Below, piece by piece: positions 1,248-1,643 of a stretch of 7,629 bases of DNA. Source of the DNA: a virus (Monodnaviria; Loebvirae; Hofneiviricota; Faserviricetes; Tubulavirales); the IMG/VR virus record IMGVR_UViG_2574180160_000002; one strand, written 5' to 3'. Below the pieces are notes generated by a model, which saw only the letters and a program-made list of their open reading frames with translations, did no database searches and was not told where the DNA came from. Position 1 is the first letter of the stretch, and each line of letters starts with the position of its first letter. A program made the translations under genes and the position numbers.

Positions 1248-1304
1248 TTCCGCTTCCTCGATCACTCGCTCACTGCGTTCGGTCGCCGGATCTGCGGCGA
1301 GCGG
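1248..1304. repeat. Direct repeat copy A (57 bp), pas-like element
   Basis: ttccgcttcctcgatcactcgctcactgcgttcggtcgccggatctgcggcgagcgg; matches copy B at 53 of 57 positions in the same orientation. Contains imperfect inverted repeats (cgctc...gagcg; cgccg-gatctg-cggcg). Confidence 0.85.
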
Positions 1305-1586
1305 TACCACCACACGCGAAGATGAAGCATTCTGCCTGTCTGTTCATCCGTCAGACCTGCCAGTCCGGCAGGCAGGTGCAGTCCATGAAAACAAAGCGCG
1401 GATTAAGCTGCGGTGCACACTACAGGGGAGCACGCTGTCAGCCATCAGTTTCATCAACAGGCAACACCATCGCCTGTACGCGTCGGGTTCTGCACAGCCA
1501 GTAAGCTGGTTGACCATGTCAGCAAAGAGCATAAGTGCCCGAAGCAGGCAGCAGAGCGTAAGTGCCCGGGGCCGGTAATGGTGCCT

Positions 1587-1643
1587 TTCCGCTTCCTCGA
1601 CCACTCGCTCACTACGTTCGGTCGCTGGGTCTGCGGCGAGCGG
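1587..1643. repeat. Direct repeat copy B (57 bp), pas-like element
   Basis: ttccgcttcctcgaccactcgctcactacgttcggtcgctgggtctgcggcgagcgg; 4 mismatches to copy A; lies 339 bp from copy A and ends 14 bp before the gene I stop codon. Confidence 0.85.

Follow-up and report, generated by a model that had tools for sequence, protein, structure and literature searches.

Each of two 57-nt direct repeats in the gap between genes I and IV of an inovirus is probably a single-strand initiation signal of the ColE1 ssiA/phiX174 type, a PriA-type complementary-strand origin that was duplicated by recombination. Judged from its sequence, a ColE1/phiX174-type initiation site in the Inoviridae is the most likely identity of the element. 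The repeats were found in a 7,629-nt stretch of viral DNA (IMG/VR record IMGVR_UViG_2574180160_000002), which is referred to as the window. The long ORFs of the window are all on the minus strand and follow the filamentous-phage gene order (ORF list):

5629-7629, minus strand: replication protein, 666 aa (Pfam Phage_GPA, E 6e-49)
Between the replication protein and the pIII-like ORF, minus strand: small ORFs, one gene-V-sized and the others coat-sized
Following these, minus strand: pIII-like ORF with a Gly/Ser repeat, then a gene VI-like ORF (ORF list)
1657-2868, minus strand: gene I, a Zot-type assembly ATPase (Pfam Zot, E 2e-9), the upstream neighbor of the repeats on the viral strand
1210-1656: gene I-IV gap, 447 bp, holding both 57-mers
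1-1209, minus strand: gene IV, a secretin (Pfam Secretin, E 9e-25), the downstream neighbor of the repeats on the viral strand

The window comes from an inovirus, with the repeats in the gap that separates gene I (Zot) from gene IV (secretin). In known inoviruses the packaged strand is the gene-sense strand, so the minus (coding) strand of the window is presumably the viral strand and is treated as such throughout. No deposited phage resembling the window was found in a megablast-level search. The close relatives are prophages, located in tandem beside hipBA (dif region) in E. coli chromosomes and, again in tandem, on a 363-kb Citrobacter plasmid. Approximately 0.7-1.1 kb of the phage genome is outside the window; two dif-like sites in inverted orientation and a small ORF of regulator size are located there.

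The original prediction described a pair of diverged direct repeats, and the repeat search bears this out: the two copies, 57 nt each, are 53/57 (93%) identical, start 339 bp apart and cease to match at 57 nt in the window. The features of the gap, in viral-strand order, are:

1587-1643, minus strand: ssiA-like copy 2, adjoining gene I, 5'-CCGCTCGCCGCAG ACCCAGCGACCGAACGTAGTGAGCGAGTGGT CGAGGAAGCGGAA on the viral strand
1631/1599, 1630/1600, 1629/1601, 1628/1602 and 1626/1603, minus strand: inner stem pairs of copy 2
1554-1565, minus strand: conserved downstream motif GCACTTACGCTC, which begins 21 nt past the 3' end of copy 2 (viral strand), consensus GCAC.T.C.C.C
1527-1538, minus strand: second copy of the motif, GCACTTATGCTC, a further 27 nt 3' on the viral strand (repeat family D8)
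1305-1586, no strand assigned: non-coding spacer of 282 bp, with a period of 339 in relatives
1248-1304, minus strand: ssiA-like copy 1, adjoining gene IV, a mosaic that differs from copy 2 at 1262, 1275, 1287 and 1290
1218-1226, minus strand: motif GCACTTAAC, 21 nt 3' of copy 1 and shortly before the start codon of gene IV

On the viral strand the 57-mer has the form 5'-CCGCTCGCCGCAG-(31 nt, hairpin)-CGAGGAAGCGGAA. Each terminal 13-mer (box) has exactly two mismatch-free occurrences in the window on the minus strand. The remaining box matches in the window appear only at 2 mismatches and are unrelated, and none of 200 dinucleotide shuffles reached the observed box count. The two-copy arrangement is present at identical coordinates in two independent IMG/VR contigs (L023 and L029), which shows that the pair is not an assembly artifact.

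The repeats had been likened to a pBR322/pUC segment and interpreted as homology instead of vector contamination. The string given for this segment is accurate, since it is present in identical form in a pMB1-derived vector record (L004), and the identity of 81-83% marks the 57-mers as true homologues of ColE1/pMB1 and not as vector contamination. Alignments to the ColE1-type pas regions are significant (E 3e-13 to 3e-15). Copy 1 matches pMB1 at 61/75 positions (81%, E 3e-15) and ColE1 (NC_001371, 1306-1364) at 50/60 positions (83%, E 3e-13), copy 2 matches pMB1 at 47/57 positions (82%), and a further ColE1 alignment gives 52/64. More than 5000 plasmid records match. Over the 57-75 aligned nucleotides the boxes CCGCTCGCCGCAG and CGAGGAAGCGGAA are identical between phage and ColE1/pMB1, and the likeness includes a core of GACCGA(A/G)CG.AG(T/C)GAG and a downstream ...CTTACGC motif. 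The matching plasmid segment is approximately 120-180 nt downstream of ori and is taken here to be the region of the ssiA primosome assembly site (also named rriA, n'-pas or L-strand factor Y site in ColE1/pMB1 and its derivatives pBR322 and pUC). A location of ssiA downstream of ori is documented (PMC3167613), and PMC4595007 cites Nomura, Low and Ray 1982 in this connection.

The proposed plasmid kinship needs one correction. Homology to ColE1/pMB1 stands, but the nearest relatives of the element are small Col(MG828)-type plasmids and not ColE1 itself. Copy 2 is identical to a 1551-bp Col(MG828) plasmid at 55/57 positions, and the nearest small plasmids (1.4-6 kb) are 92-95% identical over 67-73 nt that include the gene I-side flank. 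The 1.5-kb Col(MG828)-type plasmids have the same inner-stem architecture as the phage (GCCCcA/TGGGC in the plasmid). They differ from the phage in having one copy, no 282-bp spacer and a replicon type other than ColE1. Approximately 240 E. coli small plasmids carry the element, and one of the nearest small plasmids was found not to be a ColE1-type replicon. The equivalent 66-bp stretch of small plasmids, including pHUSEC2011-3 and pColZ, is annotated by similarity as a phiX174-type primosome assembly site (PMC6668396). When genome contigs were scanned for the element, most matches were small plasmids and probable vector contamination. The search of 50,697 phage records with positions 1200-1670 (blastn, word 11) gave 9 matches, none of them in an Ff or IKe record; all are on the ColE1-like segment of 57-74 nt and are probably cloning-vector sequence within the records.

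The element has the same polarity on the phage coding strand as ssiA on the ColE1 lagging-strand template. The plus strand of the window corresponds to the pUC top strand, and the coding strand carries the pUC bottom strand, which is the RNA II sense. In the ColE1 mechanism, the RNA II-sense strand is displaced as DNA polymerase I extends the primer; the plasmid site is on the strand left single-stranded. In phiX174, GAAGCGG is found beside a hairpin of the F-G intergenic region on the viral strand, again in the polarity of the phage element. If the coding strand is the packaged one, the phage element would have the polarity that is active and would be on the strand present as single-stranded DNA in vivo.

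Pattern searches place the element in the same position in divergent inoviruses. A tight two-box pattern run against 2.9 million viral contigs returned 28 loci, compared with an estimated 0.07 or so expected by chance. These include vector contamination (bla-carrying loci) and a few plasmid-like contigs. The others are one-copy relatives of the window, two-copy contigs with the window coordinates, a three-copy lineage that carries traX (the TraX lineage), a distant inovirus whose gene I protein is 32% identical (L010), and a family that combines a Zot protein with an RstA-like initiator and consists of Vibrio phage. The element directly follows gene I/zot in the deposited Vibrio phages V5 and FR1, and a variant with one box change immediately follows gene I in Vf33 and Vf12. 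Further E. coli prophages likewise have the module past gene I. A looser pattern gave 94 matches against an estimated 8 or so expected by chance, and 65 of these are on contigs with zot/gene I. All 65 copies are in the gene-strand orientation and 58 of the 65 are no more than 400 nt downstream of zot/gene I; these copies are not phylogenetically independent and span at least three deep lineages. The elements of Vf33, Vf12, V5 and vB_VpI_FR1 share the boxes, the strand, the place after gene I/zot and a stem beside the boxes. They differ from the window element in that they have unrelated loop and stem sequences, are 51-56 nt long, occur in single copy and are unannotated in the records.

The boxes can pair to form an outer stem (CCGCT/AGCGG plus CC/GG), which is invariant because the search pattern demanded the boxes. 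Beside the boxes is an inner stem of 4-8 bp, which varies in sequence, remains complementary and encloses a loop of approximately 20 nt. The inner stems include GACCcA/TGGTC, GATC/GATC, GCCC/GGGC, GTTTAT/ATAAAC, GTCTGT/ACAGAC, GcGTC/GACC and GAAGTGAT/ATCGCTTC, with at least 13 stem types co-varying in all, and the loop is often conserved as GACCGA.CG.AG.GAGCGA. An inner stem of at least 4 bp is present in 26 of the 40 distinct variants, and several of the others look like chance matches. In an arm-swap test, the 5' and 3' arms of the same variant form a mean of 4.9 bp, compared with 2.4 bp when the 3' arm is taken from another variant. The four differences between copies 1 and 2 all preserve the stem: the pair 1290/1262 in copy 1 has a compensatory T-A for the C-G at 1629/1601 in copy 2, the difference between 1287 and 1626 converts an A-T to a G.T pair on the viral strand, and the difference at 1275 is in the loop. 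A count of 5 G.T versus 2 A.C pairs weakly favors the viral strand as the folded strand. This co-variation indicates that the hairpin structure is maintained by selection.

RNAalifold applied to all 23 variants recovered the invariant outer stem only; it misses the inner stem because of register shifts between families, and anchored-stem scripts were used in its place. When the entire gap and the individual copies were folded as single-stranded DNA, for either strand, the structures were no better than those of shuffled sequences, and the ColE1 control behaved likewise. The phage copies have z scores of +0.2 to -0.6 and the ColE1 segment has +0.98; this test does not discriminate. ColE1, pMB1 and one further locus (L025) have just 2 bp at the inner-stem position, compared with 4-8 bp in the phage and small-plasmid variants. 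The phage element also differs from the ColE1/pMB1 site in its location after gene I and not downstream of an RNA II origin, in its clear co-varying inner stem, and in its duplication within a 339-bp unit in the window. It is thus a structural variant of the tested site, and since the tested ColE1/pMB1 sites are without the co-varying inner stem, its activity would be an extrapolation from theirs.

The sequence downstream of the element is also conserved. A motif with the consensus GCAC.T.C.C.C begins approximately 21 nt 3' of the element on the viral strand, at equal distance in the phage and plasmid homologues. It is present twice per 339-bp unit, 27 nt apart, and the repeat search recovers the two copies as family D8 (1526-1548 and 1553-1575). 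The first unit of one E. coli relative (L005) is without exactly the 27 nt that hold the second motif copy. At the motif site before gene IV, the 96.5%-identical prophage L006 has GCACTTACGC.

The two 57-mers had been viewed as a duplication of the element. The two copies are real, but they do not arise from a simple 57-bp duplication; the arrangement is one 339-bp tandem unit, composed of one 57-mer and the 282-bp spacer, plus a 57-bp overhang. Close relatives have one, two or three 57-mers. In L006 the gap is only 111 bp with the same flanks as in the window, and its single 57-mer is identical to copy 2 at 57/57 positions. Three 57-mers with two spacers are present on the Citrobacter plasmid (L001) and in E. 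coli 100416 (L005), and 27 bp are missing from one of the spacers. L002 and L007 have a period of 339 with 2.9 copies and 89% self-identity; the window itself holds just 1.17 units, which is under the Tandem Repeats Finder threshold. The relatives therefore contain a head-to-tail array of constant period and variable copy number. The spacer was detected in just 9 of 5426 E. coli genomes, compared with 20 genomes that contain the one-copy junction, and in only two plasmids, both with inovirus prophages. A single copy without the spacer is the usual state in the window phage lineage, and duplication is thus not needed for function. Every relative examined keeps at least one copy.

The array is also found in the TraX lineage, whose gene I and gene IV proteins are approximately 50-59% identical to those of the window and in which traX separates genes I and IV and gene II adjoins an IS110-family transposase. 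The array is 93.5% identical between the window and TraX lineages and the flanking DNA gives no alignment, which shows that the array was transferred. Both ends of the TraX-lineage array fall within the spacer. The spacer-facing side of copy 1 and the first 53 nt of the spacer match the first array unit of this lineage (L002 from 5662). The duplication is a rare copy-number variant produced by homologous recombination in the 57-mer and not a designed pair. In the proposed sequence of events, the second 57-mer and the spacer would have arrived together as a 339-bp unit, donated by the tandem array of the TraX lineage through homologous recombination within the 57-mer, and copy number (1, 2 or 3) would then drift by unequal recombination or slippage. 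The extra copies are presumably redundant, and the duplication seems incidental and of little consequence. A transposable element or MITE was considered and rejected, the repeats being direct and every examined locus, as well as both plasmid records, being intergenic and upstream of an inovirus gene IV. Integration of a mobile element or minicircle as a 57-282-57 structure was rejected because of the TraX-lineage array, whose two ends are in the spacer.

A primosome assembly site has been described as a fork-like hairpin recognized on SSB-coated DNA (PMC5778457). By analogy, the packaged phage strand would fold the 57-mer into an imperfect hairpin consisting of the outer box stem, the inner stem and the loop of approximately 20 nt. 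PriA would recognize this hairpin on the SSB-coated phage DNA and, with PriB and DnaT, load DnaB; DnaG would then prime synthesis. The complementary strand would be made by a rifampicin-resistant, primosome-dependent route, unlike the RNA polymerase route of Ff. Orientation, conservation and co-variation strengthen this proposed function. The job would be the same as that of the phiX174 site, nucleation of the PriA primosome on SSB-coated single-stranded DNA, and both sites have GAAGCGG beside a viral-strand hairpin; phiX174 belongs to another virus family and has no alignable homology to the element beyond GAAGCGG. A literature search, mostly without older papers, returned none that ties inovirus complementary-strand synthesis to PriA or notes the element.

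The closest comparison by virus family is the minus-strand origin of the Ff phages (M13, f1, fd) and IKe, which serves the same step from single-stranded DNA to RF. In Ff, RNA polymerase initiates at a promoter-like double hairpin beside the plus origin. The element differs from this origin in sequence and in its place between genes I and IV. A promoter scan of positions 1100-1800 on both strands found 0 promoter-like sites; the scan reads linear sequence only and would miss a promoter made by folding. The gap matches an Ff-type minus-strand origin neither in sequence, compared with the Ff/IKe origins, nor in a linear promoter-like -35/-10 arrangement. An Ff-like origin could be present in the intergenic region outside the window.

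The element may be an initiation signal that is primed in another way, by DnaG directly (G4 type), by RNA polymerase (Ff/F-plasmid type) or by a phage or plasmid primase, in which case the ColE1 ssiA homology would mean no more than a common hairpin scaffold. The tested ColE1/pMB1 sites lack the inner stem by which the phage and small-plasmid variant is defined, and GCAC.T.C.C.C, located 21 nt downstream, might mark where a primer begins or where a primase acts. This motif is not known to be part of PriA sites. Such priming is nonetheless unlikely: the phage-record search gave vector-type matches and no similarity to a G4 or Ff/IKe origin, the gap is without a promoter-like site, and the conserved boxes include the GAAGCGG that is common to ColE1 and phiX174.

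A role at the RNA level is similarly improbable. The hairpin would act in the gene I-IV transcript (for the Vibrio phages, in the 3'-terminal part of the zot transcript) in mRNA stabilization, processing or attenuation. The viral strand has the mRNA sense, so co-variation and orientation fit an RNA hairpin equally well, and the element is always directly past the gene I stop codon. Against this, no T-run follows the hairpin and a scan of the gap for terminators on the minus strand found none. A terminator-like site at 1640-1655 was discarded because it is on the plus strand, antisense to the genes, and within chance expectation. Rfam at a permissive threshold gave a chance snoRNA match only, and no family was matched by the element or the spacer. 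The module is also present downstream of ori in plasmids, and the role documented for it there involves single-stranded DNA.

An inert remnant of phage-plasmid recombination, with the repeats as a scar or hotspot that has no replication role, is given a low probability. Identity of 55/57 to small plasmids suggests recent exchange, copy number varies freely, copy 1 is a mosaic and the array is rare (9/5426 E. coli genomes). A scar would decay, but at least one copy is retained in every relative examined, the place and orientation are conserved from Vibrio to Escherichia phages, and the stem has compensatory changes. A phage-specific viral-strand signal unrelated to replication, such as the Ff packaging signals, which are long, imperfect, intergenic hairpins that act in one orientation on the viral strand, would share the form, the orientation specificity (65/65) and the intergenic place of the element and is very unlikely, since the boxes are common to phages whose gene I proteins are approximately 30-50% identical or undetectably similar and to plasmids that are not packaged. 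This distribution suggests that the element is read by a conserved host protein.

A single-strand initiation signal read by PriA may have a wider distribution. It is tentatively suggested, at a confidence short of probable, that the module serves a broad range of gammaproteobacterial inoviruses as their general complementary-strand origin, the range extending from the Vibrio Vf33 group to the dif-integrating prophages of E. coli, and that it is a portable cassette exchanged with small plasmids. The module would consist of the box CCGCTCGCC.CA, the co-varying hairpin, the box GAGGAAGCGGAA and GCAC.T.C.C.C 21 nt downstream. If this is correct, priming that depends on the primosome, and not on the Ff RNA polymerase mechanism, would be common among natural members of the family, and the 339-bp units would be amplifiable priming cassettes with a copy number under selection. 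The textbook account of filamentous phages, in which the complementary strand starts from an RNA polymerase primer at a special hairpin, is drawn from the Ff phages, and the element bears on the long-assumed generality of that model. If the element works like its plasmid homologue, many natural inoviruses would need the PriA restart primosome to establish infection, and PriA, PriB and DnaT would be host factors for them. The phages concerned would include toxin-associated Vibrio phages and E. coli prophages located at dif or on resistance plasmids. The conserved, unannotated feature after gene I would then be explained, and an exchange of replication modules between small plasmids and phages would be documented.

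The 282-bp spacer has a much narrower distribution. Searches of the other loci, the remainder of the window, phage records and ColE1-type plasmids gave no homologue, and none of 185,579 species-representative genomes contains an exact 25-mer taken from the spacer. When nine array units were analyzed with RNAalifold, no compensatory pair emerged because the units are too little diverged. Two ORFs that overlap the spacer were rejected as genes: substitutions by codon position are 16/8/16 in ORF 1344-1667 (minus strand) and 11/7/10 in ORF 1413-1862 (plus strand), which shows no bias, and neither has a Pfam match. Frame-breaking indels of 1 and 4 nt occur across the spacer ORFs. Some RefSeq records list ORF 1413-1862 as a hypothetical protein.

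The conserved motif GCAC.T.C.C.C begins approximately 21 nt 3' of the 57-bp ssiA-like hairpin in phages and plasmids alike.

Window 1218-1226, 1527-1538 and 1554-1565, minus strand: conserved motif GCAC.T.C.C.C, with homologues at five other loci (L003, L009, L016, L039 and L040).

One possibility is that the motif is a primer start site. The motif is absent from pUC-type vectors, where it was lost at a cloning junction. A scan of genome contigs (L101-L179) returned many matches to the hairpin element on very short contigs from taxa with no close relationship to one another, among them Streptomyces, Nostoc and Corynebacterium, and these matches most likely represent cloning-vector contamination of the assemblies.

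The hairpin element also occurs in multiple copies on other contigs. Two non-inovirus viral or plasmid-like contigs carry 2 or 3 copies with 1.3-2 kb between them, located at 2724 and 3991 in L027 and at 34, 1421 and 3397 in L037. The multi-copy arrangement is therefore not unique to the window phage. Four contigs of Candidatus Arsenophonus triatominarum (L100, L105, L125 and L152) each contain 2 or 3 copies at a spacing of about 1.3 kb, so this insect symbiont probably has a further repeated layout of the signal.

A second inovirus lineage has traX (F-pilin acetylase) in the interval from gene I to gene IV, and its replication gene is flanked by an IS110-family transposase. The lineage is represented by L002 on a Proteus IncC tet(X4) plasmid and by L007 and L008 in E. 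coli chromosomes. The 282-bp spacer reaches 31 copies per genome in this lineage, indicating many prophage copies, and the chromosomal sites of these prophages differ. Prophages of the window-phage type in E. coli are arranged in tandem adjoining hipBA, and tandem prophages are likewise present on an IncFIB/IncHI1B Citrobacter plasmid. The prophage of E. coli 100416 (L005) contains a pair of dif-like sites in a region beyond the window.

L005 8080-8200, 3' of gene IV in the viral-strand sense: two mutually inverted dif-like sites (AGTGCGCATAATGTGACACGCGTTATGTTGAAAA and ACATAACGTCATTGTGCGCACT).

Folding of the paired sites could generate a CTXphi-like single-stranded attachment site.

Two further repeats lie within coding regions of the window phage.

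Window 3695-3889, minus strand: 39-bp tandem repeat (4-5 copies) inside the pIII-like ORF (3230-4546).
Window 5659-5719, within the 3'-terminal part of the ORF for the replication protein: inverted repeat of high GC content (GTCGGCTTC ... GAAGCCGAC).

The 39-bp repeat encodes a Gly/Ser-rich linker (GSGGSSGSGGSGS...), and the length of the pIII-like gene differs among relatives from 1317 to 1386 nt. A gene-V-like ORF is immediately downstream of the inverted repeat, for which the possible roles include terminator, regulatory hairpin and origin component.
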